A stretch of 34,836 nucleotides of DNA. It comes from a virus. Taxonomy: Duplodnaviria > Heunggongvirae > Uroviricota > Caudoviricetes. The notes below the pieces were generated by a model that saw nothing but the letters and a program-made list of their open reading frames with translations, searched no databases and had not been told where the DNA came from. The DNA lies in the IMG/VR virus record IMGVR_UViG_2687453454_000001, positions 1-34,836 of that record. One strand, 5' to 3'. Below, one piece after another: positions 582 through 34,542 of the stretch. Every line of letters begins with the position of its first letter. Positions within the stretch are counted from its first letter, which is position 1. Both the position numbers and the translations under genes were made by a program.

Positions 582-1589
582 CTATTTTGCCTCTTGGCGG
601 TTATCGAACGGGTTAAGTGCTACCGCAGCATCAAGGTGGTTTGGGGCAAAATGCGCATACCTCATTGTCATCATGATCGTGCTGTGCCCGAGAATTTGCT
701 GTAACACCAAAATATTCCCACCTCGCATCATGAAGTGACTCGCGAATGTATGACGTAGTACATGGGTACGCTGTCCTTTGGGCAGCTCTATACCTGCGCG
801 TGCGAGAGCTGCCTTAAAAGCCTCGTATGCGGGTGAGAAGAGGGCACCACGCTTTTTAGGGAGCATCGCCTGTAGTTGTTGTGAAATTGGCACTGTGCGG
901 TTCTTCTTGCTTTTGGTTTGCGTAAACGTCAGACGACCAGGAAGGATTTGAGATTGCTTTAAGTCTTGAGCCTCGCTCCATCGTGCACCGGTCGCCAGAC
1001 AAATCCGTACGATAATCCCTAAATCTTTATTTGCGGACTGGTCGCATGCTGCAAGCAATCGGTCAATTTCTTCCTCATACAGAAAAGCCAGCTCCTGATC
1101 ACCTTCTTTGAACTGCCTGATTCCAGACAGCGGGTTATCTCCTTCCCATTCCCCCAGCCGCTTCATTTCCGAGAATACTGCATGCAGATAAGACTGCTCG
1201 CGGTTTACTGTCGCTTCACTCAGCTTCTTCTTGCCTTTCTGATTCCATTCACCACTCAAACGCCGTTCCCGGTATACAGCGAAAGTGTTTTTATCAAAGT
1301 GAGAAGCCAATGGATCACCAAGACGTTCGCATATGGCCAGTAATTTCACCTTTCTTTCATCACCAGATGAGAGCGTTTTGCCATGCATCTCGTACCAGCG
1401 TTCAACGAATGCCGAAAGAGTCACAGCGCTGTCGTTTACCGGCTGGTTTGCAGCGTTATTCATTAAACGGCGCTCATGGGAGAGCGCTTCACCTTTGGTA
1501 GCAAATTGCTTACGTATGCGTTTCCCATCACGCCCGTAAGGGAAACACTGACAAAGCCATTTACCGGAGGGTAGTTTTCGGACGGTCAA
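582..1589 (-). CDS. int: P2-family tyrosine integrase
   Basis: 335-aa ORF with catalytic-type motifs ATGARWSEA, HVLRHTFASH and MRYAHF; close resemblance by eye to P2 Int; adjacent to a tRNA gene. Confidence 0.9.
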   Translation of the reverse strand: MTVRKLPSGKWLCQCFPYGRDGKRIRKQFATKGEALSHERRLMNNAANQPVNDSAVTLSAFVERWYEMHGKTLSSGDERKVKLLAICERLGDPLASHFDKNTFAVYRERRLSGEWNQKGKKKLSEATVNREQSYLHAVFSEMKRLGEWEGDNPLSGIRQFKEGDQELAFLYEEEIDRLLAACDQSANKDLGIIVRICLATGARWSEAQDLKQSQILPGRLTFTQTKSKKNRTVPISQQLQAMLPKKRGALFSPAYEAFKAALARAGIELPKGQRTHVLRHTFASHFMMRGGNILVLQQILGHSTIMMTMRYAHFAPNHLDAAVALNPFDNRQEAK

Positions 1590-2464
1590 TTACTCACCTC
1601 TGCATCATCATCAGATCCTGCATACGCGAGTGAAATGAACATTTCCGCAGCGTTATCAAGATGTGCATAGGTTGATGTAAATTCGATATCTCGACACCTA
1701 CAGACGAATGGGCGCGTTTGATTTTCTGGTTGGAAGGATAAACTTACAACTGGAGTTTTGCGTGGTTTACCATTTTTGAAAAAGTTACAGACATCCAAAC
1801 GATTGCAAAGGCCTGCATCATCTTGATAAGTAGCAACATGCCACCCCATACCATGAAGTGTATCGGCAAATGCTAAATGCACTTCTTCGATATTTTTATA
1901 TAAGCCAACGGAGTATTGTTTTTTCTTACTCTCATTACGTTTTCTTGGCAGGGATGGGAGCCTTGCTACACCAGGTATTTCAATTTTTTCCAAGCTGAAT
2001 GTTTTTACCGGGTGAGTCGGAGATGATAGGTCCGCTGCTCGCAGCGTAAAGTTATCAAGCAATGTCAGAGGAAGGATATCTCTTGCTGCTCCGGATCGTT
2101 CACCTCCGTGATAAATGATTGATAAATTATCTTTGGTATCAATTGACGACCAGATCAGGTCCAGAAGAGGGTGTTCATCATGGATTGTAAATGTTGGTGT
2201 ATTGCCCTTTTGACCTTCTATATTTTGCGCATCCGACAAGGGGGATAGGTTTAGAAATTGCTCGGTCGACAGCACCTCTGAACCTTGCTGAGATGCCTTT
2301 TTTATTTTGCTCGGACCAGCATTTTCACCGCAACAGAGATAGTTAAGATCCTTGGTGACATCACTTCTAACGACATATCCACGAGCTTTAGCAATTTCAA
2401 TAAGCTCATTTTTGTCTTTTTTCCCAAAACCTGTAAAACAAATAGTCCTCATATAAAACCCCAC
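1586..2464 (-). CDS. BRCT-domain protein with WYL-like middle domain and C-terminal extension (cargo gene; function unknown)
   Basis: N-terminus TICFTGFGKKDKNELIEIAKARGYVVRSDVTKDLNYLCCGENAGPSKIKKASQQG has the BRCT pattern; the middle LSIIYHGGERSGAARDILPLTLLDNFTLRAADL...KTFSLEKIEI resembles a WYL domain. Probable ATG start at 2452 (ORF track start at 2464 is GTG). Its stop overlaps the int start by 4 nt. Local GC is lower than the phage core. Confidence 0.7.
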   Translation of the reverse strand: MGFYMRTICFTGFGKKDKNELIEIAKARGYVVRSDVTKDLNYLCCGENAGPSKIKKASQQGSEVLSTEQFLNLSPLSDAQNIEGQKGNTPTFTIHDEHPLLDLIWSSIDTKDNLSIIYHGGERSGAARDILPLTLLDNFTLRAADLSSPTHPVKTFSLEKIEIPGVARLPSLPRKRNESKKKQYSVGLYKNIEEVHLAFADTLHGMGWHVATYQDDAGLCNRLDVCNFFKNGKPRKTPVVSLSFQPENQTRPFVCRCRDIEFTSTYAHLDNAAEMFISLAYAGSDDDAEVSN

Positions 2465-8450: not shown

Positions 8451-8828
8451 CTACTCGAGCGTTAGTTGCTCGGGACTGCATTTGTACAGTGTAGCTAGCC
8501 GTTCAAGGTTGTCTTTGCGAGGACGCTCAGACTTTTCGAACTCGGACACTGTAGATTGCTTAATTCCCAGCGCTTCAGCGACTTGTTTTTGCGTCAAGCC
8601 TCTGTAAACACGCCATGCAGCCTGCATGGTGCAACCCTTCTCAGAAAGAATGTTGATAACTTCGTTTGGGTATCGAACGTTATCAGATGTGCCGGTTTCG
8701 TTTTGAACAGGCTCGTATAACTCTGCGATATCACTATCACGGGTCAGTTTTTCGAACAGTTCAATCGGCACGACAGCAGAAATTCTTTTCCCTCTACTGT
8801 CTGTGATGAATTGAATGTTAGCCATCAC
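8451..8828 (-). CDS. HTH (XRE-type) protein, putative antitoxin
   Basis: 125 aa; C-terminal HTH LTQKQVAEALGIKQSTVSEFEKSER; lies downstream of the RelE/ParE-like gene on the same strand. Confidence 0.6.
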   Translation of the reverse strand: MMANIQFITDSRGKRISAVVPIELFEKLTRDSDIAELYEPVQNETGTSDNVRYPNEVINILSEKGCTMQAAWRVYRGLTQKQVAEALGIKQSTVSEFEKSERPRKDNLERLATLYKCSPEQLTLE

Positions 8829-9411: not shown

Positions 9412-9798
9412 GTGAGTGATACGGTGAATTTTGATGGGCTTTCACGGCAGGAAAAGCGAGAACTGGCACAGCGGTTTAGTGACGTTGTTCGAAGCAAACT
9501 TAAAACACGTCCACCGGAACGAGAAGAAGGGGCTGGACTATCGGTGAAGGAGCTTATAACTAAAGAACTACTTGAGCTATGTGGGATTGATGCCTGTGTC
9601 GGGATGATAAAATCAATAGTACCGGGAACGCATATTGGCTATATCGATCTGATTTTTGAGATCGAAGATGGACGTCTAGCGTTCAAAATTTGCTCAGAAA
9701 CAAACTTCAATGTTGCTACTAAACAAAAGATGGCGAACATTTTAGATAGAGATAGAATACTAAAAAGGTTGAAGCAAGCTTTGTTTACAAATGGATAG
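9412..9798 (+). CDS. hypothetical protein (128 aa), first gene of the AT-rich cargo pair
   Basis: ORF with GTG start at 9412 (alternative GTG at 9424); GC falls along the gene; ends 20 bp before the 944-aa ORF. Confidence 0.5.
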   Translation: MSDTVNFDGLSRQEKRELAQRFSDVVRSKLKTRPPEREEGAGLSVKELITKELLELCGIDACVGMIKSIVPGTHIGYIDLIFEIEDGRLAFKICSETNFNVATKQKMANILDRDRILKRLKQALFTNG

Positions 9799-9818: not shown

Positions 9819-12653
9819 ATGTGTGTCGTTATTTACCACAAATTGGGATTGGTTATGAGCATTATGAAAATAGAAGTAAAAGGTAAGCCAAAAGGAGCAG
9901 TCATTTATATCAATGTCAAGAAAACCATAGCTTTTTATTTGACGATTTCAATTTTAATTCTGCTTGGGATGTATTTATCACGTTTTTGTTCTGTGCCATA
10001 TAAATATTTATTGATTAGCCCATCTTTTTATAATAATCCATATCTTAATTGGATAACTGGTGTTTGGGGTAGTTTTTTAGGCATGCACGGTACTATAGCT
10101 GCTTTGTCTATAACTTTTATGGGAATGTTTGTCGATCAGGTTTCAAAGACATCTGAACATGGTTTTGAGCATTTATCGAAAGTCTTATTGCTAAGAGAGT
10201 ATGATTTTTTAGGATTTAGTGTTGAATCAGTGTGTAGTCTATTATGTGGCGTTTTTTTACTTCTCATTGGTAGTGGCTTGATTGGATATTTAATTTCATC
10301 TTTACTTTCTTTATTTTTTATCACTAAATATGGCATTATGTATTATAGACTTTACCATTTAACAGAAGAACCCGGAGTTATTAATGGGATTTTATTAGAT
10401 TCTATCAGGACAACAGGCATCAAGTATAATGAGATTAACAAACAACGACAGATTCTTGCTAACGAGTTTTCTCAAGTAATATCGGGAGGTGATTACTACA
10501 GTGATGATCAAAGTGCCTTCTATTGGAATGATGATGCGATAACGATAAATATTTTTCCTGATGACACTGATGTGGTTATTTCTGGATACAATCCAAACAT
10601 ATTTAATCAGCTTTCGGTAAAGATTAAAGAATTTAATTTGAACCATCCGCCTATCTTGCTTTTCTCTTTATCATTCTTATCACCCATATCAAATTCCTCA
10701 ATGAAAATCATTCCATCTAATAAATCTGATTTGACAGAGGAGCATATTTCATCAATTGAATCAATTTTGAGGAAAGGGCTGATATTTAGTTCTGTTCCTT
10801 ATGTTTTTAATGAGTTTAAACAATTTGAAGAAGCTCTTGTAGTAAACGTCAGAAACAGTTTGCTGAATGGTGATGAGTGGACGTTAGATTTTGGAGTGCG
10901 TATTTTTTATGAACTAACTTCAAATGATAACTATATCTACACTCTAAAGAATATAGATTTGTCAATTACGTCCTCTAATACTAAAGATGTGGTGAAAACA
11001 TCTTTGTTTGCAAGTTATTTTGAAAAAATGATACGTGAGGCTTATAATCAGAGTAATCTTGAAAAGGCTGCTAATATAATGCGGTCGTTAATAGACCTAG
11101 CGAGATATATTTATGGTAAGAATAACTTTGTCGATTTTTATAAAAGGATTTTTAGACAATTTGACCATAGGGTAAAGTATCGTGCAGAAGAATCAAATTA
11201 TGTTTTTTTAGATCTGTATACATCCACTGTGCTGCACAACCTAGTATATAAGAATTATGCGGCTTTCAAAGTTGATACTGAGTTTGTGACGCGTAGATTG
11301 CAGTATCTAGATCTTAGCAATAAAACAGAACATGATTCATTGAATGAAATGCAACGTAAGATATTACGTTTATTATTTGAAGTTATATCCTTGCTAATTA
11401 TGCGAATAGAGCATGTGAAGGCGAAGGGTGAAGAACGCAAAGAGGAACTCAACGAATTAATCATTTCATTGAAGTCTTGGGTAAATGCTAAATTTTTGCA
11501 GGAATTATATTACAAAAAAGAGCTTTACGATGTGTTGTTTACTATACCTCAAGAGTTTTCGGTATTCGGTGCAGAAACTAAAATTCGAGAAATACCAGAT
11601 GGTGAAGCGACATGGAGATCAGTTTCGAACGATACTTATAAGATGATCGCATTCGTTCTTACGCAAAGCTCTTTCAACAATAATCAATTGAATCTTTTAT
11701 TTGTTAGAGATGCATTTCAATTTAAAAATGCTACGTCAATATTAACCCGCGAATTAAGTTCTATAATAGATTACATAGAGGGTGAATCTTTCTCTAAATT
11801 ATTTAAATTGATAACTGAAAAGGATTTGGTCGAAGATAGTAATAAAAAAACAGTAGTTGAGAAGTTGGAGTCGATTATTTCCTCGCAAAATTCTTTAGTG
11901 CTGCGCAGTGTGATCGAATCAGAATTAGAGCCTTCATTGGTTGATAAATATAGTAACGAGATCATACATTCTGTGGAGAAGCTATTTGAGCTAATTTTGC
12001 CATTGGAAGCAATTCCTTTAGAGATTGGATTCAATGGGATCGAATCACATCTATTAATTAATAAAAGAGAGGTGCTCCCCCCAATTGATGGTGTTTCTTA
12101 TGGAATGAACATTCATAACCATAGTCAGTGGTTAATATATGAATGGATCAGGAGTGTATTAAACAGTATTGATATAAATGCTGTGGAGGTTATCACTATT
12201 GATGACCCACAAGATTTGCCAACCGAAAAATTAGTTACCATAGAATATCAAGTTGAAGATAGAGTTAACACTTTTAGGCATTCTCGAGGTTTAAAAATTA
12301 ATGATAAGGAAGGCCATTTGAATTTGAATGGTTCTGGCTTGTATTATTTGGATTTATTAAATAACTTTAATTTAAAAAAATCAAAAGAAATACTAACGGT
12401 TAACATAGAAAAGATATTTGAAGGAAATATTGAAATGGTTAAAGGACGATATGATTTTGATAATGATAATCCTTATCTATATTCAATTTTAAATGTCGTT
12501 TTTAACATTGTTGCCATACCAAATATGATATGTAAACTTTATTTTCTATCGGAAGATAAATGTCTGTTAATCAATCAAAAACAAGAAAGAGAGATGGAGC
12601 AATTAATTAAAGGGAACAGAACGGAGAATCCTGATAACAGTAATGTATCTTAA
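9819..12653 (+). CDS. large AT-rich membrane-anchored protein of unknown function (944 aa)
   Basis: Uninterrupted 2.8-kb ORF in very AT-rich DNA; N-terminal hydrophobic helices (TIAFYLTISILILLGMYL, WITGVWGSFLGMHGTIAALSITFMGMFV, VCSLLCGVFLLLIGSGLIGYLISSLLSLFFI) then about 750 aa of soluble sequence; alternative starts at 9855 and 9864. Confidence 0.7.
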   Translation: MCVVIYHKLGLVMSIMKIEVKGKPKGAVIYINVKKTIAFYLTISILILLGMYLSRFCSVPYKYLLISPSFYNNPYLNWITGVWGSFLGMHGTIAALSITFMGMFVDQVSKTSEHGFEHLSKVLLLREYDFLGFSVESVCSLLCGVFLLLIGSGLIGYLISSLLSLFFITKYGIMYYRLYHLTEEPGVINGILLDSIRTTGIKYNEINKQRQILANEFSQVISGGDYYSDDQSAFYWNDDAITINIFPDDTDVVISGYNPNIFNQLSVKIKEFNLNHPPILLFSLSFLSPISNSSMKIIPSNKSDLTEEHISSIESILRKGLIFSSVPYVFNEFKQFEEALVVNVRNSLLNGDEWTLDFGVRIFYELTSNDNYIYTLKNIDLSITSSNTKDVVKTSLFASYFEKMIREAYNQSNLEKAANIMRSLIDLARYIYGKNNFVDFYKRIFRQFDHRVKYRAEESNYVFLDLYTSTVLHNLVYKNYAAFKVDTEFVTRRLQYLDLSNKTEHDSLNEMQRKILRLLFEVISLLIMRIEHVKAKGEERKEELNELIISLKSWVNAKFLQELYYKKELYDVLFTIPQEFSVFGAETKIREIPDGEATWRSVSNDTYKMIAFVLTQSSFNNNQLNLLFVRDAFQFKNATSILTRELSSIIDYIEGESFSKLFKLITEKDLVEDSNKKTVVEKLESIISSQNSLVLRSVIESELEPSLVDKYSNEIIHSVEKLFELILPLEAIPLEIGFNGIESHLLINKREVLPPIDGVSYGMNIHNHSQWLIYEWIRSVLNSIDINAVEVITIDDPQDLPTEKLVTIEYQVEDRVNTFRHSRGLKINDKEGHLNLNGSGLYYLDLLNNFNLKKSKEILTVNIEKIFEGNIEMVKGRYDFDNDNPYLYSILNVVFNIVAIPNMICKLYFLSEDKCLLINQKQEREMEQLIKGNRTENPDNSNVS

Positions 12654-12788
12654 AAAGAATAAGTGATTGATACCTTACTATCAATGCGCAAAATTTACAT
12701 GGAATTTTGTCAAAGTAGATCACGTGAGGCGGGGAAAATTGAAAATGATCTAAAGGTAATCGCTAGTCAAAAGATTGCACTAGGCGGC

Positions 12789-12887
12789 TGCACAATAGTG
12801 CACAAGTTTGCACAATTTTTGAAACAACGTTTTTTCCATGCCGCCCCAGCGCTGGCGGGGCCTGGGCGGACTGCACAAAGTGCACAA
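12789..12887. repeat. five copies of TGCACAA in the packaging region
   Basis: Copies at 12789, 12799, 12809 (exactly 10 bp apart) and 12872, 12881, immediately upstream of the cos-like sequence. Confidence 0.6.
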
Positions 12888-12909
12888 AAAGAGGCCGGTT
12901 TAGCGCGCA

Positions 12910-12930
12910 GGCGAGGCGGGGGAGCAAGCG
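12910..12930. other. cos site (P2-type cohesive-end sequence)
   Basis: GGCGAGGCGGGGGAGCAAGCG resembles the P2 19-nt cohesive end GGCGAGGCGGGGAAAGCAC as I recall it; lies next to the portal and terminase genes. Confidence 0.6.
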
Positions 12931-13161
12931 CGCGCAAAGGGGGGCAGGTAGGGGGGCATATCCTTCGCCATTCGCCGTCTGTCGGGTGCTCATGTTGATG
13001 GTTGAGCGAAGCGGCAGCGCGAGAGAAGTCGCGCCAGAAGCCCGTTGGCTGCGTCTGGTAGGGGGGGGGTTTATTTGTGTTTCGTGAGTGGCCGAGATGG
13101 CCGGAAATGATGGTGCTGCGGGTGGTACCGCACCGCCAGAAATGACGATGCGGCAAGGAGA

Positions 13162-26419: not shown

Positions 26420-26702
26420 TTAACATCACCTCCCAAATCTGCGTTTCACTCTCTTCTGCATCTGAACCGTAGAAGCCAATTAATTCTACGATGATCTCTC
26501 CTGACTCCTTTCTGGCATTCAGTACAGGATTGGGGGTTAACACAGATACAAAATCGACCGCGATATCGCCATCATTCAGGATGCTAAAATCGAATGAATC
26601 GGCAACATCATCAACTTCAATCGTTAATACATCACCTTTTGCCGACACTTTCATGACGTAATCAGAACGCTGCGGGGTAAAGATTGCTTTCATCAGAACC
26701 AT
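26412..26702 (-). CDS. alternative tail fibre assembly protein, N-terminal-part ORF
   Basis: 96 aa; ends 8 nt after the next ORF's ATG; sits between H' and the Tfa C-terminal-domain ORF. Confidence 0.5.
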   Translation of the reverse strand: MVLMKAIFTPQRSDYVMKVSAKGDVLTIEVDDVADSFDFSILNDGDIAVDFVSVLTPNPVLNARKESGEIIVELIGFYGSDAEESETQIWEVMLNG

Positions 26703-27100
26703 CTCCCAACTGCTGTATATCCAAGATATGCCGCTGCATTTTGCACATTGCTAATCAGCGCCAGTGACGTCCCAGTCAGTGAACTACCGCGAACGGAAGG
26801 CCACGATGATGTACCACCTGTTGATAGTGGAGCAGAAGGTGCTACGGCTGGCCTGGTGCCAACGAAAGTTGCAGGAAAAGTGAACACAGATTCAGTGGAA
26901 AAATATAGGTTTGTCGTTCCACCACTAGGGTTACTTGTTATGGATTCGACCGACTTGGTAAAACAACAGATTAATGTTCCGTCGGCGAATTTTGTGTACT
27001 CACCATTTGAGTTAGATCCTCTCTCAATAATTGCCCCGGTCGGAACTCCCCCTGACTGAGATACTGTTCCTACGACATCAGCTTTAGCAGCCGTTCGCAA
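26693..27100 (-). CDS. alternative tail fibre C-terminal (receptor-binding) segment H', promoterless
   Basis: Reading frame runs from the right crossover site; Gly/Ser/Thr-rich, fibre-tip-like sequence; would fuse to the constant H N-terminus after inversion. Confidence 0.6.
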   Translation of the reverse strand: MRTAAKADVVGTVSQSGGVPTGAIIERGSNSNGEYTKFADGTLICCFTKSVESITSNPSGGTTNLYFSTESVFTFPATFVGTRPAVAPSAPLSTGGTSSWPSVRGSSLTGTSLALISNVQNAAAYLGYTAVGRWF

Positions 27101-27117
27101 ACCAACGTTTTCCGGAA
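27092..27117. repeat. right crossover site of the invertible segment
   Basis: CGTTCGCAAACC-AA-CGTTTTCCGGAA; its reverse complement resembles the left site with the matching central dinucleotide. Confidence 0.5.
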
Positions 27118-27223: not shown

Positions 27224-27793
27224 ATGCTGATCGGCTATGTTAGGGTGTCAACAAATGACCAGAACACCGCGCTGCAAAGAAATGCGCTGGAAAGCGCAGG
27301 ATGTGAACAAATATTTGAAGACAAAATAAGCGGCACAAAAGCGGAAAGGCCGGGGCTTAAGCGTTTATTACGAACCTTATCGAAGGGGGATACGCTGGTT
27401 GTCTGGAAGCTTGATCGTCTCGGGCGGAGCATGCGCCACTTGGTGACCATGATTGAAGAGCTACGCAATCGCGGTGTTAACTTCCGCAGCCTGACAGACA
27501 GCATTGATACCTCAACACCTATGGGGCGTTTTTTCTTTCACGTCATGGGGGCGCTGGCAGAAATGGAGAGAGAGTTAATCGTTGAGCGCACCCGCGCCGG
27601 TTTGGTTGCGGCTCGTGCAGAAGGAAGGATAGGAGGGAGGCGACCAAAACTGACAGAGCAGCAATGGGAACAGGCGGGAAGACTGATCGCCGCAGGGGAG
27701 AAACGACAGCGGGTGGCTATTATTTTTGATGTCGGAATATCGACACTTTATAAAAAGTTCCCTTCAACAAGAAGGGAACATGAAGGGGCTTAA
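27224..27793 (+). CDS. serine DNA invertase (Hin/Gin/Pin/Cin family)
   Basis: N-terminus MLIGYVRVSTNDQ with the catalytic serine context; GRRPKL and C-terminal HTH typical of this family. Confidence 0.92.
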   Translation: MLIGYVRVSTNDQNTALQRNALESAGCEQIFEDKISGTKAERPGLKRLLRTLSKGDTLVVWKLDRLGRSMRHLVTMIEELRNRGVNFRSLTDSIDTSTPMGRFFFHVMGALAEMERELIVERTRAGLVAARAEGRIGGRRPKLTEQQWEQAGRLIAAGEKRQRVAIIFDVGISTLYKKFPSTRREHEGA

Positions 27794-27800
27794 GGCATTA

Positions 27801-28298
27801 TTAAAACAGACCGTTGAGCGAGTCTTTCACCCGGTTTATCGCATTATTTGCACTCGTCTTTAACCCGGCCAGGGCATCGCTGACGGTCGAGCTTTGCAGC
27901 TTCTCCCTGTAATCCGAATCGACACGGCTTAGGGTGAGGGTAAATTCGATTTTTTTTGGATTCCCAAATCGGTCGAACTCGGACTTTCCCCGCTCCAGAC
28001 GTGTTAAAACGTACATACCATAAATACGCCCCGTACCCTCAATAAGCGGCCATGGGCGCCCTGCGTAGCCGACAGTTTCAAGGGCTGACAGCGAGATATT
28101 TCCACCGGTGATTTCCGGGTAAAGGACGCCTGACAGCGTTATATTGTCATCACCAGCACCAATGTACTGCCAACCGGCTGACTGGTTAACCCGCTCGTTT
28201 TTTACGTGCCTCCATTCCTGCGAGTGCTGGAGTTGCTGGTAAGGGGTGGTGCGCAGCATAAAAACGAACATTCCAAAAACCATCATCATAATCGTCAC
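27801..28298 (-). CDS. U: tail protein U (gpU-like)
   Basis: 165 aa; FVFMLRTTPYQQLQHSQEWRHV and ITLSGVLYPEITGG resemble P2 U as I recall it. Confidence 0.8.
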   Translation of the reverse strand: MTIMMMVFGMFVFMLRTTPYQQLQHSQEWRHVKNERVNQSAGWQYIGAGDDNITLSGVLYPEITGGNISLSALETVGYAGRPWPLIEGTGRIYGMYVLTRLERGKSEFDRFGNPKKIEFTLTLSRVDSDYREKLQSSTVSDALAGLKTSANNAINRVKDSLNGLF

Positions 28299-31022
28299 CT
28301 ATTCTCTGTCGCGGAAAGAACCACGGTTAATTCTGCCGGTGCTGGCCATCGCATCACGCACAACATTGCGCATCATTCTTTCCAGCTCCTGATCCGTGCG
28401 TTTACCAACATCGTTAAAGATAATGTTAAAAATTGGGGCGCCGCCGGTCGGAGCGGTAACGGGAGCTGATACCGGGGCCTGTGTGGCGGCGGTCGCGGAA
28501 ATAATGCCCCCAGCTGCGGGCGTTGCCACTCGAGATACTGATTGCGGTATGACACGCGCTTCCTGATATGCGCCACGCAAAGCCAGGGCACGCGGCAGGT
28601 TTTTGAAAATAATGTCACCCGGTCCGACTTTCTTGGTGTTGTCAGCGGTTGCTTTTGTATTGTCTGCTATGCTTTGCAGACGTCGTTGCGTACCGGTATT
28701 TCCTGACAGCGGCGAGACCGCAGGTGGTGCGCCAGTAGCAACTGGCGACTCTGCTTTTTTGGGGGACCAGTTCCATTCCTTCTGGACCATTTTCTTTTGC
28801 TGTGGGTCCCACTCCCATGAAACTGGTTTTTTGGGCGCGAGATCGTTGACTTTGTCTCTCGCAGCGTCAATTCCGGATGGAATTAAACCCAGCTTTTCCA
28901 GCAAAAGGCTGACTCCTTCAGTCAGCAGTCGCAGGGGGGTAAAGAGTAAATTTAATGCGGTACCGAGTACCTCACCAAATGTTTTCCCGGCACTGGCACA
29001 TGTGTCCAGCGCATCACGAGAAAAGTCTATAGGGGTGAATAACTGGCTAAACCAGCTCCATAACTTAGATACACCGACGCCAATTGCATCAAACAATGGG
29101 ATTAAAAACGAAAACGACTGAATCAGTGGTGACAGACCCAGACTGATACCAGTAAACAGACCAGAGAAAAACGCCTTGATAGGCTCCCAGAATCGCAATA
29201 TGAGCAGGCTGGCGGCAACAAATGCCGCAACAATAAGGCCAGGAACGCCGAGTAACGAGGCGAGAATTACCCGTAAACCAGAGAACGCAACGCCAAGTGT
29301 CGATACGCAACTGGTCGCTGTGATCGATGATATACCAATCATGCTTAAGGCCAGCCGGAGCTTCGCCAATGGGCCGAGAATGAAACTCACTGTTAAGCTT
29401 GCGATGCCAAGAGCACCGACAAGTACCATAATCGCGCCACCAATCAGGATAAATGTCTGTGTCAGGCGGGGATTTTCTTTAACCCAGGTGCTGGCGGCAG
29501 TAATCAAGTCGCTGAGTCCCTGAGTAAGAGATCGCAGAGGGCCATCGGTGGTCTCTTCGACCTGAATGCGGAAACCTTCCCATGCGCTGTCTAGGTTTTT
29601 CAGATCGCCGCTGAGGTTGTCAGCCATGACCTTCGCCGCCTTCTGCGCTTCACCCTGAGAGCCGCGCAAATCAGCCAGGAGTTTTTGCAGCTCACCGCTA
29701 CCAGCCGATCTAACCAGTGCCTGAAATGACTTTGCCGCTTCCTCGCCTGCTATGTCTTTGAAGAATGACAGCTGGTCTGTGTCACCGTACTTTTTGATAG
29801 ATTTATAAATATCAGATAAGACTACTTCGGCAGGTCGCATTTTTCCGGTGGCATCAGCAACAGAAACGCCCAATTCTTTCAAGGCTGCCTGAGCTTTTCC
29901 TGTTGGTGCAGCCAGACGCGAAAAGGTGGTTTGTAGGCCAGTACCTGCAATACTGCCACGCAGGCCAACGTTCGCCATTACACCGATCATGGCGGTTGTG
30001 CGCTCAACATCAACGCCAAGACCGGCCATCCCGGTTCCTGCATACTTCATCGCCTCACCGATGTTCATTAAATCGGTGTTAGTACGGGTAAATGCCGCGG
30101 TCAAAACATCACTGACCCGATCCATCTCCTTTGGATCGAGACGGAACTGCGAAAGAATGTTAGAGCTGATGTCGGCACTTTCACCAAGATCCATGCCACC
30201 GGCGAGCGCCATATTCAGAACGCCAGGCAATGCAGCCTGAATAGCAGCCGGAGTAAAGCCAGCCATTGCAAGAAACGCCTGCCCGCTGGCTGCATCGCGC
30301 GAAGTAAATGCGGTTTCGGCACCGAGTTTTTTGGCCTGCGCACGCAGGTCTGCCAGTTGGGAGGCGTCTTTGTTGAGTCGGGTTAATGCCTGAACGCGTG
30401 ACATTTCCTCATCGAAACCAATCGCAGGCGCCAGGAATGATCCGCCAGCGTAGCCCGCAGCAGCAGTGCCTAGCATCATCCCCATGCCTGCCCCGCGAAG
30501 CTTGCCCGCAGTCTCTTTAGCTCGATCATACCCGGCCTGTGCTTTTTGGGTAGCAGCCAGCTGGCGACGTTCGCGCTCAAGTGTCTGGTTGTATTGCTCC
30601 GTACGCCTGATGGCACTTTGGATAGCGCCGCTCCCGGTGGTGAGGTTAACGCCATGCTGACGCACTGCCTGCGCGGCTGTGCGCAGCTGCGTCGTTTGCC
30701 TGCCGTAGGTTTCAGTCAGCCGGGAAAGTTTGGTACGAAGTGACTCAAGTCGCGCCGTCTGGGCTTCAGTAAGCTGACCACCTTCGCGTTGTTTCTGGTT
30801 GAGGCCGTCAAAGGCTCGCTGGGTGCTTTTCAGCTTCTGCGCAGTGTCATTGGCTTGCGAGCGCAACTTATCAAATGACGCTGCGCTTTTTTCTAGGTCT
30901 TTGATTGAGGACTGTGTTTTTTTGAGGGAGTCGGAAAGGCCGCCAATGGCTTTACTGGCGGCGTTGACCGGGCGGGTGAGCTTGTCAATTGCACTGAACG
31001 CAACGCGAATACTAAGATCCAT
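28299..31022 (-). CDS. T: tail tape measure protein (gpT-like)
   Basis: About 907 aa; Ala/Gly-rich helical sequence with hydrophobic central segments; best start at the ATG at 31022 after GAAGGAGG (ORF track begins at 31043). Confidence 0.88.
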   Translation of the reverse strand: MDLSIRVAFSAIDKLTRPVNAASKAIGGLSDSLKKTQSSIKDLEKSAASFDKLRSQANDTAQKLKSTQRAFDGLNQKQREGGQLTEAQTARLESLRTKLSRLTETYGRQTTQLRTAAQAVRQHGVNLTTGSGAIQSAIRRTEQYNQTLERERRQLAATQKAQAGYDRAKETAGKLRGAGMGMMLGTAAAGYAGGSFLAPAIGFDEEMSRVQALTRLNKDASQLADLRAQAKKLGAETAFTSRDAASGQAFLAMAGFTPAAIQAALPGVLNMALAGGMDLGESADISSNILSQFRLDPKEMDRVSDVLTAAFTRTNTDLMNIGEAMKYAGTGMAGLGVDVERTTAMIGVMANVGLRGSIAGTGLQTTFSRLAAPTGKAQAALKELGVSVADATGKMRPAEVVLSDIYKSIKKYGDTDQLSFFKDIAGEEAAKSFQALVRSAGSGELQKLLADLRGSQGEAQKAAKVMADNLSGDLKNLDSAWEGFRIQVEETTDGPLRSLTQGLSDLITAASTWVKENPRLTQTFILIGGAIMVLVGALGIASLTVSFILGPLAKLRLALSMIGISSITATSCVSTLGVAFSGLRVILASLLGVPGLIVAAFVAASLLILRFWEPIKAFFSGLFTGISLGLSPLIQSFSFLIPLFDAIGVGVSKLWSWFSQLFTPIDFSRDALDTCASAGKTFGEVLGTALNLLFTPLRLLTEGVSLLLEKLGLIPSGIDAARDKVNDLAPKKPVSWEWDPQQKKMVQKEWNWSPKKAESPVATGAPPAVSPLSGNTGTQRRLQSIADNTKATADNTKKVGPGDIIFKNLPRALALRGAYQEARVIPQSVSRVATPAAGGIISATAATQAPVSAPVTAPTGGAPIFNIIFNDVGKRTDQELERMMRNVVRDAMASTGRINRGSFRDRE

Positions 31023-31484
31023 CGTCATCATCCTCCTTCTCATGGTTACCGCTTCTGATGGCCGCCCGTTCGCGCCAGGCCATCAGCTCGCGCAACTCCA
31101 TGCTGTGCATTTCGGAGGGCGGCCAGTGAAATATCACAGCGATGTCGGCGATCAGATCGTCGACATCACTGAATACTGCCTCTCTTACTTGCTCGCCGTC
31201 GCCGCCTCTCTCGGTGCGGACGGCGCCGCTTTCGTCAAAAAAGGCGTGATTTCTTCGCACAGTGCCGTAAAGTCTCCGGTCGCCATTGAGGAAATATCGG
31301 TGGTTGTCAGCTGAGGTGCGGTGACGCGAGTCAGTAGAGTTGATACCGCGTCATAGTCGAAGTTGAGAACATCAACCAGACGCAGCCCGCGCAGTGAGCC
31401 AGCCTGCTTGATTGTGTCGGTGATTGCGACGGATTTGATTTCCTGGTCGCCGCGTTTAATGGGTTGGCTGAGAGTTACTGACAT
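31012..31484 (-). CDS. tail assembly chaperone frameshift product E+E' (programmed -1 frameshift)
   Basis: The -1 frame ORF 31012..31260 overlaps the E 3' end; slippery heptamer TTTTTTG occupies 31242..31236 on the minus strand. Confidence 0.7.
31185..31484 (-). CDS. E: tail assembly chaperone (gpE-like)
   Basis: 99 aa, between the tail tube and tape measure genes; contains a slippery TTTTTTG near its 3' end. Confidence 0.8.
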   Translation of the reverse strand: MSVTLSQPIKRGDQEIKSVAITDTIKQAGSLRGLRLVDVLNFDYDAVSTLLTRVTAPQLTTTDISSMATGDFTALCEEITPFLTKAAPSAPREAATASK

Positions 31485-31538
31485 TATATTTTCTCCGGGC
31501 GGCCATTCTGGCCACCATTGGTAGTGGTAAAAAAAAGA

Positions 31539-32054
31539 TTACTGGCCGAGACCCAGGGCGGACGCAATGCGGTCCGGGTAGAGACTCTTGCCGTTGCGCT
31601 TGTAGATGAAGTTCAGCAGGTCGATTTCCAGCAAAGGCTTGTCATCCACGGAGAGCTTGTAATACGTATTTTTGAGCGCATAAGTATGGCTGGTGTCATC
31701 ACCCTGCTTGGCTTCGCCCTGGTCAACTTCGGTAATACGTCCGCGCATCTCGACCTCAAGCAGGGAACTTGTTCCACCGCTGTAGATCTCACCGACAAAG
31801 CGCGTGCGTAGTTCGTCAATATCTCCGCCCCATTTCAGAATCAGCTCTTCGACCATGCCGCCAACAACCATTGATGCATCCAGTGCACCTGAATCAAGGC
31901 CGAGGTCGACAGCAGCGGAGCCAAGCATCCCACCACCCTGGTAATCTTCCGTTTTACGGGTAATTTTGGGGAGCGTGACGCTGGGGATTTTCCCGATGTA
32001 GTTGTCACCATCGACAAACATCGTGAACAGGCGGAGTTTCTTCGGAATAGCCAT
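31539..32054 (-). CDS. FII: tail tube protein (gpFII-like)
   Basis: 171 aa; P2 FII-like sequence; directly downstream of the sheath gene. Confidence 0.88.
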   Translation of the reverse strand: MAIPKKLRLFTMFVDGDNYIGKIPSVTLPKITRKTEDYQGGGMLGSAAVDLGLDSGALDASMVVGGMVEELILKWGGDIDELRTRFVGEIYSGGTSSLLEVEMRGRITEVDQGEAKQGDDTSHTYALKNTYYKLSVDDKPLLEIDLLNFIYKRNGKSLYPDRIASALGLGQ

Positions 32055-33236
32055 TTATGCACCTCCCAGCGATGCAAAGGCTGGTTCGTAATACTGATCG
32101 GTAAACGTCTGGATCAGCGTTAAATCTTCCAGCGGTGGTACGGGGCTGTAGTTGTAGCGAACAACGGCTTTACCCTGGCGAATACCGGTGGTCGGGTTAT
32201 CGACAATATCAAACCAGCATGCAGCACCAATCAGTTTGCCAGCAGTAACCAGCGCCTGAAGTTTGGCATTGATCCCACTCACGACGTCTTTGACGTTAGC
32301 CGGGGTAAGCGGTTTGTCCACGGTGGTGAATTGTGCTTCCGCAATGCTGTCCGCCAGAATTTGGGCAGTACGGGTAAATACCTCGAAAATATACTCTTCG
32401 GTGTCGGTGGTGCGGTTCCCCCAGAACCGGAAGCCGTCGCGTTTGATCAGCGTGGTAATCTCGTTGGCGTTCAGCTCGTTAGCGTCGGAGTCCTCCGCCT
32501 GTAACGCCCAGAAAACGTCTTTAGAGATACCTAGGACGTTTTTAACCGCAACGTTAGAAAGTGACTTGTGCCAGCCCTGCTCATTGTCAATCAGTGCCCG
32601 CAGGCCAAGCGCATAGGCAACAGCCGGGAATTCTTCATTAACGCCGGTCTGCGGGTTGTAGGCGATGAAGTTAGGCCAAATCATCATCCCTTCACGTTCG
32701 GCAAACTGCTCGCGGTAGGTTTTCGCTTCGGCAATAGTCTCGCAGCTATCGCAGTAACTGTAAGAGAATGCACGCAGCTGCTTCGCAATTACGCGTAGCT
32801 GTGCGGTTACTTCCTGCGTGTCGTACATCGGAATGCCGAGGATGCGAGGGCGGTAACCGGTTTTCTGCTCTGCGGTCAGCAGGGCAAACATCCCGGTATA
32901 GCTTCCGTCAGCCTGTGTGCCACCGATAATGAGCTGGGATTGCGTTTTGGCATTTTCTCCTTCCTTTGCTTCAGCGACACGAACAACAATTACACGCGTG
33001 CTGACCTGGTCGGAAATAGCCTTGAGAGATTTATACAGTGAGCCTGTTTTGCCCGCCTTACCCAGCACGCTAATCACGCGAGTGATCAGGACTGGCGTAT
33101 CAAGTGGAAAGGTGAGGGGATCGGCATCATCGGCCACCGCAACCAGACCAATGACCGTTGAATCAATGTCATTGATCGCGGTCTGGAGGTCGGTGTTTTC
33201 TTTGGTGCGCGCCCCGTGGAAAAAGTTGTCGGTCAT
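32055..33236 (-). CDS. FI: contractile tail sheath protein (gpFI-like)
   Basis: 393 aa; P2 FI-like sequence and order. Confidence 0.9.
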   Translation of the reverse strand: MTDNFFHGARTKENTDLQTAINDIDSTVIGLVAVADDADPLTFPLDTPVLITRVISVLGKAGKTGSLYKSLKAISDQVSTRVIVVRVAEAKEGENAKTQSQLIIGGTQADGSYTGMFALLTAEQKTGYRPRILGIPMYDTQEVTAQLRVIAKQLRAFSYSYCDSCETIAEAKTYREQFAEREGMMIWPNFIAYNPQTGVNEEFPAVAYALGLRALIDNEQGWHKSLSNVAVKNVLGISKDVFWALQAEDSDANELNANEITTLIKRDGFRFWGNRTTDTEEYIFEVFTRTAQILADSIAEAQFTTVDKPLTPANVKDVVSGINAKLQALVTAGKLIGAACWFDIVDNPTTGIRQGKAVVRYNYSPVPPLEDLTLIQTFTDQYYEPAFASLGGA

Positions 33237-33311
33237 ACTCTACCGCCATCATGTTTAGTGAGTTCATGGTGATATTCGCTGAATTCCGGGCGGCAGACAC
33301 GTTGCGATGGA

Positions 33312-33329
33312 TGTCGCAGAAAGGCGACA
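33312..33329. promoter_or_regulatory. Ogr/Delta-type late-promoter activator site (TGT-N12-ACA)
   Basis: TGTCGC-AGAAAG-GCGACA perfect dyad between the divergent FI and D genes. Confidence 0.55.
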
Positions 33330-33387
33330 ACAAAAGGCTGTTTGTCCTATCGCGCGCGCATGGAAATATTTGCGGGAGGAGAAAGCG

Positions 33388-34542
33388 ATGGCACTGACAA
33401 CTGAGGCAATAGAGAGCGCAAAAAGCCTGCTGAATGCGGGTGCTGAGAAATTCAAAAATTATCCTGGCGACTTGTCACGTGTGCCAGCGTTTAACGTAAC
33501 GCTTGGCGGCAGAGCGCTGATCATGCTGGATGAGAAACTGATCTCGTTAGAATTAACAGATAACAGGGGCTTTAATGCTGATGAACTGACTATCACTGTT
33601 GATGACAGCCAGGGAGATATTGAGTTACCGCCACGTGGCGCTGAGTTATCGGTAGCGATAGGTTGGCAGGGAGAAAAACTGGTACACAAAGGGATTTTCA
33701 TCGTGGATGAAATTGCGCACTCAGGGCCGCCGGACCGTATCGAGATCACGGCCAGAAGTGCAGATTTCCGCGATGAATTTAACGTTAAGCGGGAGGTGTC
33801 GTGGCATGATGTTACAGTAGAGCGCATCGTCTCTGCTATAGCTCACAGGTACAAGTTAAAACCTCTCATCTCAGAGCAACTGATGTCCGCCGAGATCGAT
33901 CATGCAGATCAGACGCAGGAAAGCGATATGTCGTTTCTGACGCGCATGGCGGAAATGCTGGGCGCTATTGCAACTGTGAAAAATGGTTACCTTCTCTTCA
34001 TCCTGCCTGGTGGCGGTGTCAGCGCAAACGGCAGAGCGTTGCCGGAATTTTCCATCACGCGCAGCAGCGGAGATCGCCATTCTTTCCGGATTGCAGATCG
34101 CGACGCATATACTGGCGTGCAGGCGTACTGGCTTGATATGGATTTCGGGAAAAAGAAAAAGGTTACTGTTAAAAAGCGGAAGAAAACCGCAGACAAAAAG
34201 CCGCGCAGCAGCAGCCGGGAAGGGGACTATATTGCCGGTGAAGATGGTAACGTTTTTGTACTCCGTACGACGTACAGCAGTGAGATAGCCGCACAACGTG
34301 CAGCAGCTGCAAAATGGCAACAACTCCAGCGCGGAGCTGCTGAGTTCTCTTTAACCCTGGCTTACGGGCGCGCGGATCTGTATCCGGAGATGCACGGAAC
34401 GGTAACGGAGTTCAAAGACGTCATTGACGGCCAGGATTGGATAATTGCGAAGGCAAGCCACACTGTTGACGATAGTGGGTTTAAAACGCGGCTGGAGTTG
34501 GAAGCAAAAATACCTGAATGGATTGCAGAAACCGAATCATAG
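33388..34542 (+). CDS. D: tail protein D (late control gene D family)
   Basis: About 384 aa from the ATG at 33388 after GGGAGGAG (ORF track begins at 33307); P2 D-like. Confidence 0.85.
   Translation: MALTTEAIESAKSLLNAGAEKFKNYPGDLSRVPAFNVTLGGRALIMLDEKLISLELTDNRGFNADELTITVDDSQGDIELPPRGAELSVAIGWQGEKLVHKGIFIVDEIAHSGPPDRIEITARSADFRDEFNVKREVSWHDVTVERIVSAIAHRYKLKPLISEQLMSAEIDHADQTQESDMSFLTRMAEMLGAIATVKNGYLLFILPGGGVSANGRALPEFSITRSSGDRHSFRIADRDAYTGVQAYWLDMDFGKKKKVTVKKRKKTADKKPRSSSREGDYIAGEDGNVFVLRTTYSSEIAAQRAAAAKWQQLQRGAAEFSLTLAYGRADLYPEMHGTVTEFKDVIDGQDWIIAKASHTVDDSGFKTRLELEAKIPEWIAETES

Follow-up and report, generated by a model that had tools for sequence, protein, structure and literature searches.

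In bacteriophage P2, a -1 frameshift at the heptamer TTTTTTG leads from the E product of 91 aa to an E+E' fusion of 142 aa, as set out in PMC3091744, which cites Christie et al. (2002). The P2 E/E+E' frameshift has thus been on record since 2002, and earlier work has already documented that P2-like phages conserve it. The P2 shift reportedly takes place at a frequency of about 10% in the 2002 work of Christie and colleagues, in which E' is also said to be essential for lytic growth. A second described system is the G/GT pair of phage lambda. Both G and GT are needed for tail assembly and neither has been found in the virion, according to the account in PMC5009743 that summarises Levin et al. 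(1993) and Xu, Hendrix and Duda (2004, 2013, 2014). The lambda G/GT-type class (Xu et al., 2004) comprises overlapping ORFs joined by a -1 slip near the end of the first, and it is defined by this organisation (with a -1 or, rarely, a +1 slip) and not by sequence similarity. Among bacterial genes, the dnaX gamma/tau system of E. coli uses a tandem-slippage -1 frameshift on an X_XXY_YYZ heptamer, and relies on an upstream stimulator resembling a Shine-Dalgarno (SD) sequence together with a strong downstream hairpin.

The window analysed here is the whole stretch of 34,836 nt of the IMG/VR record IMGVR_UViG_2687453454_000001, and it is a complete P2-type prophage. Its left part carries, in order, genes for an integrase, a Dam-type methylase, the gpA replication protein, the portal, the terminase, the scaffold gpO, a P2-family capsid protein and the small terminase. 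The right part continues with R, S, V, W, J, I, the tail fibre and its assembly chaperone, and a serine invertase. The end is formed by U, T, E/E', FII and FI on the minus strand, followed by D and ogr. Within E/E' of this P2-like (Peduoviridae) E. coli prophage lies a site that is very probably orthologous to the P2 E/E+E' programmed -1 ribosomal frameshift site.

Gene E (31185..31484, minus strand) encodes a zero-frame product of 99 aa, as judged from its ORF, its translation and its match to PHROG 103. The slippery heptamer T_TTT_TTG lies inside this gene at 31242..31236 on the minus strand, within the range of 31230-31250 that the first-pass annotation had given for it, and no second TTTTTTG is found nearby on that strand. 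The minus-strand text around the site reads ...tgc gaa gaa atc acg ccT TTT TTG acg aaa gcg... and the codons ccT_TTT_TTG encode Pro81-Phe82-Leu83 of E in X_XXY_YYZ phase, at an offset of 242 nt from the E ATG. The first base of the E stop is 55 nt downstream of the heptamer, in agreement with the earlier description of a site close to the 3' end of E on the minus strand. A -1 frame that opens at 31350 spans the heptamer and closes with the TAG at 31014..31012, and the heptamer therefore stands where both frames are open in the window. A slip would append 74 codons and a stop, a distance of 225 nt when counted from the heptamer's last base to where the E' stop ends. The same annotation had the -1 ORF running about 230 nt beyond the E stop; the measured extension is 173 nt, and the larger figure was probably the 225-nt distance taken from the heptamer.

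Both frames that meet at the heptamer are homologous to described P2-type proteins. In the zero frame, E matches PHROG 103 'tail protein' at 1.6e-31 and the E of P2 and Wphi at 38% identity (1e-10, tblastn), and is thus homologous to gpE-type chaperones. Against PF10109 Phage_TAC_7, described as the tail assembly chaperone family 'E, or 41 or 14', E alone scores 22.6 bits, just below the cutoff of 25, and the modelled fusion scores 29.4 bits over residues 3-83. The overlapping -1 frame, E' (31012..31236, minus strand, read only after a slip), holds the GpE domain: the extension matches PF06528 Phage_P2_GpE at 69.3 bits (cutoff 23; 2e-19) over profile positions 1-36 of 37. The extension also matches PHROG 1756 at 8e-26, in an alignment that starts at extension residue 4, as well as PHROG 6416. 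The conserved domain, beginning IAVIFHWPPSEM..., covers fusion residues 112-147 (31045..31152, minus strand; PF06528 and PHROG 6416).

The fusion was modelled by a rule in which the zero frame is read through TTG and the -1 frame is then read from its G; applied to P2, this rule yields the published 142 aa. The predicted E+E' of the window (31012..31484, minus strand) has 157 aa, with 83 aa of the E frame through Leu83 and 74 aa of the -1 frame, and with the junction ...EEITPFL|DESGAV... A predicted tryptic peptide of 37 residues, VTAPQL...ITPFLDESGAVR, would span this junction. Aligned with the E+E' fusion of P2, the modelled fusion is 43% identical (E = 4e-39), and the alignment runs over the junction. 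No family in NCBIfam was found to match E or the fusion, and a PDB sequence search with the fusion returned no matches.

The likeness to P2, and with it to Wphi and the 186-type Peduoviridae, extends to the heptamer itself, its phase and its Gly/Pro-Phe-Leu context. In both phages E' is in the -1 frame with the GpE domain, the fusions align end to end, and E/E' stands between FII and T. Here the upstream neighbour of E is the tail tube gene FII (31539..32054, minus strand; PF04985 Phage_tube, 1e-46), and the downstream neighbour is the tape-measure gene T (28299..31043, minus strand; PF10145 PhageMin_Tail, 1.8e-49), in the syntenic order FII, E/E', T and U. The end of E' overlaps the start of T in both phages. 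In P2, E' ends at locus position 1210 and T starts at 1203; in the window, the T start region (31022..31043, minus strand), with an SD sequence AAGGAGG at 31039..31033 and ATG codons at 31031, 31028 and 31022, overlaps the 3' end of E', and PGAP puts the T start at 31022. No downstream RNA structure is supported here, and none is reported for P2.

The two phages also differ in several respects. The E proteins are only about 38% identical, and E has 99 aa here as compared to 91 in P2. The zero-frame tail that follows the slip site is 16 codons long here and 6 in P2, and the fusion of 157 aa, against 142, has an 11-residue insertion after the junction. The P2 shift has been experimentally shown, whereas the prophage described here is known from its sequence. 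Gene arrangement differs as well: FI-FII-E/E'-T-U is inverted here relative to D and the baseplate genes, while in P2 FI-FII-E-T-U-D forms one co-directional operon (FETUD).

As in lambda, two overlapping ORFs lie between the major tail or tube gene and the tape-measure gene, and their organisation, with a -1 slip site near the end of the first, places the pair in the lambda G/GT-type class, whose membership is a matter of organisation and not of sequence similarity. There is no detectable sequence similarity to G/GT, and the lambda tail is non-contractile, unlike the contractile P2-type tail encoded here. The lambda slip sequence is G_GGA_AAG, unlike the T_TTT_TTG of the prophage. The chaperone role known for lambda would apply here by analogy.

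The conservation of the site was examined among 80 close IMG/VR relatives, with E 71-99% identical; the window itself is absent among these 80 viral loci. TTTTTTG was found in the same phase in all 80, 55 nt before the E stop except in one end-truncated locus, though these relatives are homologous and indel-free, and the 80 agreements in phase are not independent observations. A -1 ORF of 72-76 codons that resembles E' was present in all 80 close relatives bar three loci cut by a contig end. One relative (IMGVR_UViG_2724679385_000001) is only about 82% identical to the window at the nucleotide level, yet it shares the window's length of 34,836 bp and has E at the same coordinates, which looks like a coincidence of collinear related prophages.

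A second set of 14 distant records was made up of an enterobacterial part (P2, Wphi, Enterobacter phage phiT5282H and two Klebsiella records) and of the phages or elements Burkholderia KS5, Ralstonia RSY1, Pseudomonas Dobby, Shewanella M16-3, a Halomonas phage, Stenotrophomonas Smp131, Aeromonas phage 3, Zymomonas pZM41 and Microcystis Mae-JY29. E' was in the -1 frame relative to E in all 14, with an in-phase T_TTT_TTN at the homologous position. The heptamer was TTTTTTG in ten of them, TTTTTTT in three (Smp131, pZM41 and Mae-JY29) and TTTTTTC in one. In the records of Wphi, KS5 and Smp131, the identical join is annotated as a -1 frameshift. The -1 frame is thus conserved from Enterobacteria to phages of Alphaproteobacteria and cyanobacteria. 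The first-pass annotation had described the site as the conserved tail-chaperone frameshift, and had named the lack of the overlapping frame in homologues, together with an undetectable fusion product, as the finding that would speak against it. The heptamer, its phase and the -1 E' frame accompany E in both the 80 close and the 14 distant relatives, with three end-cut loci in the close set for the overlapping frame.

The stretch in which both frames are open differs between genomes. In P2 it is 34 nt long, and the -1 frame opens 9 nt before the heptamer. In the Shewanella phage, the opening of the -1 frame is exactly the heptamer itself, and the E stop of Aeromonas phage 3 lies 13 nt downstream of the heptamer start. 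Given the limits set by these two phages, the heptamer is the one frame junction that is possible in all of the genomes.

How much weight can be placed on the bare pattern of a heptamer followed by an open -1 frame? TTTTTTG is not enriched in the window, with 13 copies against 11.1 +/- 3.5 expected and with 32 of 100 shuffles reaching at least 13. In-phase X_XXY_YYZ heptamers number 86 in the approximately 17,500 codons of mechanically called ORFs of the window, and besides the one in E, eight of them precede -1 ORFs that extend beyond the stop by more than 90 nt. Among these eight -1 ORFs are at least some that are simply the next gene, overlapping in the -1 frame. Heptamers of this kind include GGGGGGG at 22146 (plus strand), 10-13 nt before the stop of the ORF 21484..22158, and AAAGGGG/GGGGGGG at 20522-20525 (plus strand), 10-13 nt before the stop of the ORF 19986..20537. 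In each case the long -1 ORF is the next gene, and both look like ordinary overlapping gene junctions. A heptamer with a long -1 ORF was accordingly rejected as a criterion, the other eight examples in the window being the reason. Since the pattern is common in the window, it is no proof by itself, and the case is made by homology and conservation.

The abundance of such heptamers with -1 ORFs behind them is also what would favour a reading in which the heptamer does no more than encode Pro-Phe-Leu, with the -1 ORF being open by chance or a relic without function. The probability of this reading is close to nil. The -1 frame of the window holds a Pfam domain at 69 bits and is conserved from Enterobacteria to phages of Alphaproteobacteria and cyanobacteria. 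The nucleotide sequence of the site itself argues in the same direction. In a codon-use test of 71 distinct E genes, 41 codons had an invariant, degenerate amino acid, and only 4 of the 41 positions used one codon throughout, namely Glu77 and, in the heptamer, CCT, TTT and TTG. Codon choice is free at the other Phe and Leu positions (at Phe72, 36 sequences have TTT and 33 have TTC), so the three codons of the heptamer are synonymously frozen where comparable codons are not.

The pattern of substitutions also contradicts a relic or chance frame. Upstream of the heptamer, nucleotide diversity is highest at codon position 3 of the E frame (0.36-0.37). In the 48-nt overlap right after the heptamer, position 3 of the -1 frame is the most diverse (0.24) and position 3 of the E frame the most constrained (0.09), and amino-acid diversity in this overlap is 0.31 in the E frame vs 0.15 in the -1 frame. 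The heptamer is the exact point at which the periodicity of substitutions passes from the E frame to the -1 frame, and purifying selection on the latter therefore starts at the slip site, about 80 nt upstream of the start that PGAP assigns to E'.

That assigned start belongs to another description of E', as a separate small gene. In RefSeq/PGAP, E' has an entry of its own, a 'GpE family phage tail protein' of 47 aa (WP_039268621.1; 31155..31012, minus strand), and stand-alone 'GpE family' CDSs of this kind are present in several phage records, E' being likewise split off in those of Dobby, Shewanella, Halomonas and Zymomonas. Were E' such a gene, it would be translated from a start of its own. 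The annotated start, however, falls on the CTG at 31155. No start codon with an SD sequence was found in the -1 frame ahead of the conserved domain: GTG 31260 and GTG 31137 both lack one, and the remaining starts, ATG or TTG codons, are within the conserved domain. E' is thus without a translation initiation site of its own. A start at 31155 is also at odds with the selection on the -1 frame, which begins at the heptamer, 80 nt upstream, and with the PHROG 1756 match, which begins at residue 4 after the slip. Furthermore, the -1 frame is open before the heptamer for just 9 nt in P2 and for none in the Shewanella phage. A separate E' gene is, on these grounds, highly improbable. The 157-aa E+E' fusion is not annotated in RefSeq/PGAP, and with E' listed as a free-standing gene it is missing from the protein sets of the prophage. 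The practical value of the result is an annotation fix, in which E' becomes the frameshift extension of E in place of a separate 47-aa gene.

If the E/E+E' site works as its P2 counterpart does, most ribosomes would read E (99 aa) to its stop at 31185, and a minority would slip back by one base. In the slip, the P-site tRNA-Phe on UUU and the A-site tRNA-Leu on UUG of U_UUU_UUG would both re-pair, with UUU_UUU. Translation would then go on with GAC GAA AGC... in the -1 frame for 74 further codons, giving the 157-aa E+E' with its C-terminal GpE domain. A fixed slip frequency would set the ratio of E to E+E', and the analogy with P2 E/E+E' and lambda G/GT suggests that the two proteins may serve T, the tape-measure protein, as chaperones in tail assembly. 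The ribosomal nature of the shift and its frequency would likewise follow from the comparison with these two phages.

A slip during transcription would produce nearly the same protein. RNA polymerase slippage on the T6 run would add one U to some mRNAs, and the fusion junction would then read ...PFF|DESG... in place of ...PFL|DESG... What is conserved is indeed a homopolymeric run of T (T6, or T7 in Smp131, pZM41 and Mae-JY29), and sequence analysis is unable to separate it from ribosomal slippage. Efficient bacterial transcriptional slippage, though, generally needs runs of about 8-9 or more, and a run of 6 is short for it. Position 7 is mostly G (10 of the 14 distant and all 80 close relatives), and the phase of the run is in every case X_XXY_YYZ, as needed for the tandem re-pairing of tRNAs. 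The P2 event is, moreover, said to have been treated as translational by Christie in 2002 and by Xu and colleagues in 2004. PMC3091744 also describes the P2 shift as translational. Polymerase slippage is therefore a very unlikely source of the fusion, and a ribosomal slip is the preferred reading.

Transcriptional slippage would also be favoured by the lack of a supported downstream stimulator of ribosomal frameshifting. Folding predicts a GC-rich hairpin at 31229..31191 (minus strand), beginning 6 nt after the heptamer. It has a folding energy of -21 kcal/mol and a z of -1.8 in 51 nt, with 11 of 200 shuffles equally good, and in an 86-nt context the z of the region is 0.03. When 48 distinct relatives were compared, 3 of the 13 pairs proved to be broken in roughly half of the sequences, a double change occurred in one pair only, and no covariation was found beyond that of shuffles (63/500). 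RNAalifold retained only a short stem. The 5-bp core CCGUC/GACGG is kept in nearly all relatives, a conservation that the dual-coding nature of the region explains. With a modest fold, no covariation and frequent breaks, the hairpin was rejected as an unsupported downstream stimulator.

No SD-like motif is visible in the 20 nt upstream of the heptamer, and an Rfam scan of 30900..31600 found no frameshift element, its hits being sub-threshold chance matches to eukaryotic families. The site accordingly falls outside the stimulated sites of the dnaX or IS type, which have a conserved structure 5-9 nt after the heptamer, and differs from dnaX in that neither of the dnaX stimulators is supported here. 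For P2, KS5, KS14 and KL3, no downstream structure is reported in PMC3091744. A departure of this lineage from the mechanism of P2, be it through the hairpin at 31229..31191 as a lineage-specific stimulator with another E to E+E' ratio or through RNA-polymerase slippage, is unlikely.

The site was originally also put forward as support for a functional tail module. All of the P2-type tail genes identified in the prophage (R, S, V, W, J, I, the fibre with its chaperone, FI, FII, E/E', T, U and D) are intact ORFs, which speaks for that proposal; function is not shown by sequence, and the proposal is to this extent not proven. The intact slip site may be taken as one small sign that the prophage could still build tails.

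The FI-FII-E/E'-T-U block (27801..33236, minus strand) is inverted relative to D and ogr (33307..34542, plus strand) and to the baseplate and fibre genes (21071..26196, plus strand). Klebsiella phage 3LV2017 (Reginaelenavirus), which has been isolated and is classified by ICTV, shows the same inversion, as does a Klebsiella record. Being common to 3LV2017, the inversion is a feature of the lineage and not damage. D must be transcribed apart from FETU, presumably from a divergent intergenic region at about 33237..33390. A search for inverted repeats flanking the inverted FI-to-U block gave nothing convincing.

A second inverted arrangement concerns the tail fibre. The 1711 bp at 25401..27111 form an invertible tail-fibre (host-range) segment, which contains the 3' end of the fibre gene, the assembly chaperone, and an alternative fibre end with a chaperone fragment in the opposite orientation. 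E. coli 10R (NZ_CP070232.1) has the segment in the flipped orientation (99.9% identity), and each of the two junctions shows an 8-bp overlap. The adjoining serine invertase gene (27224..27793, plus strand) has Resolvase and HTH_7 matches. The segment and the invertase are a Gin/Cin/Hin-type switch.

Other parts of the prophage carry genes with few or no matches. An ORF of 944 aa (9819..12653, plus strand) lies between the gpA and portal genes and has neither a Pfam nor a PADLOC match. It carries four in-phase TTTTTTA heptamers, which suggests an AT-rich cargo gene; the gpA-portal position in P2-like prophages often holds anti-phage cargo. Its small neighbours (9412..9798 and 12663..12998) are also without a match, and an ORF at 8451..8828 (minus strand) has an HTH match. 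Next to the integrase gene, an ORF of 292 aa (1586..2464, minus strand) has an N-terminal BRCT domain and a weak PADLOC match (3.5e-06), confined to the BRCT region, to the candidate system protein PDC-S48.

The closest isolated phages are Klebsiella phages, whose E region is about 80% identical in nucleotides. Over the 8.3 kb that were tested, E. coli from human urine, turkey, farm environment and calf brain carry the prophage at 100% identity, and several complete E. coli genomes have it in the chromosome next to yecA/tyrP. EC26 and 10R, the two genomes looked at, show it beside yecA-tyrP-ftnA.
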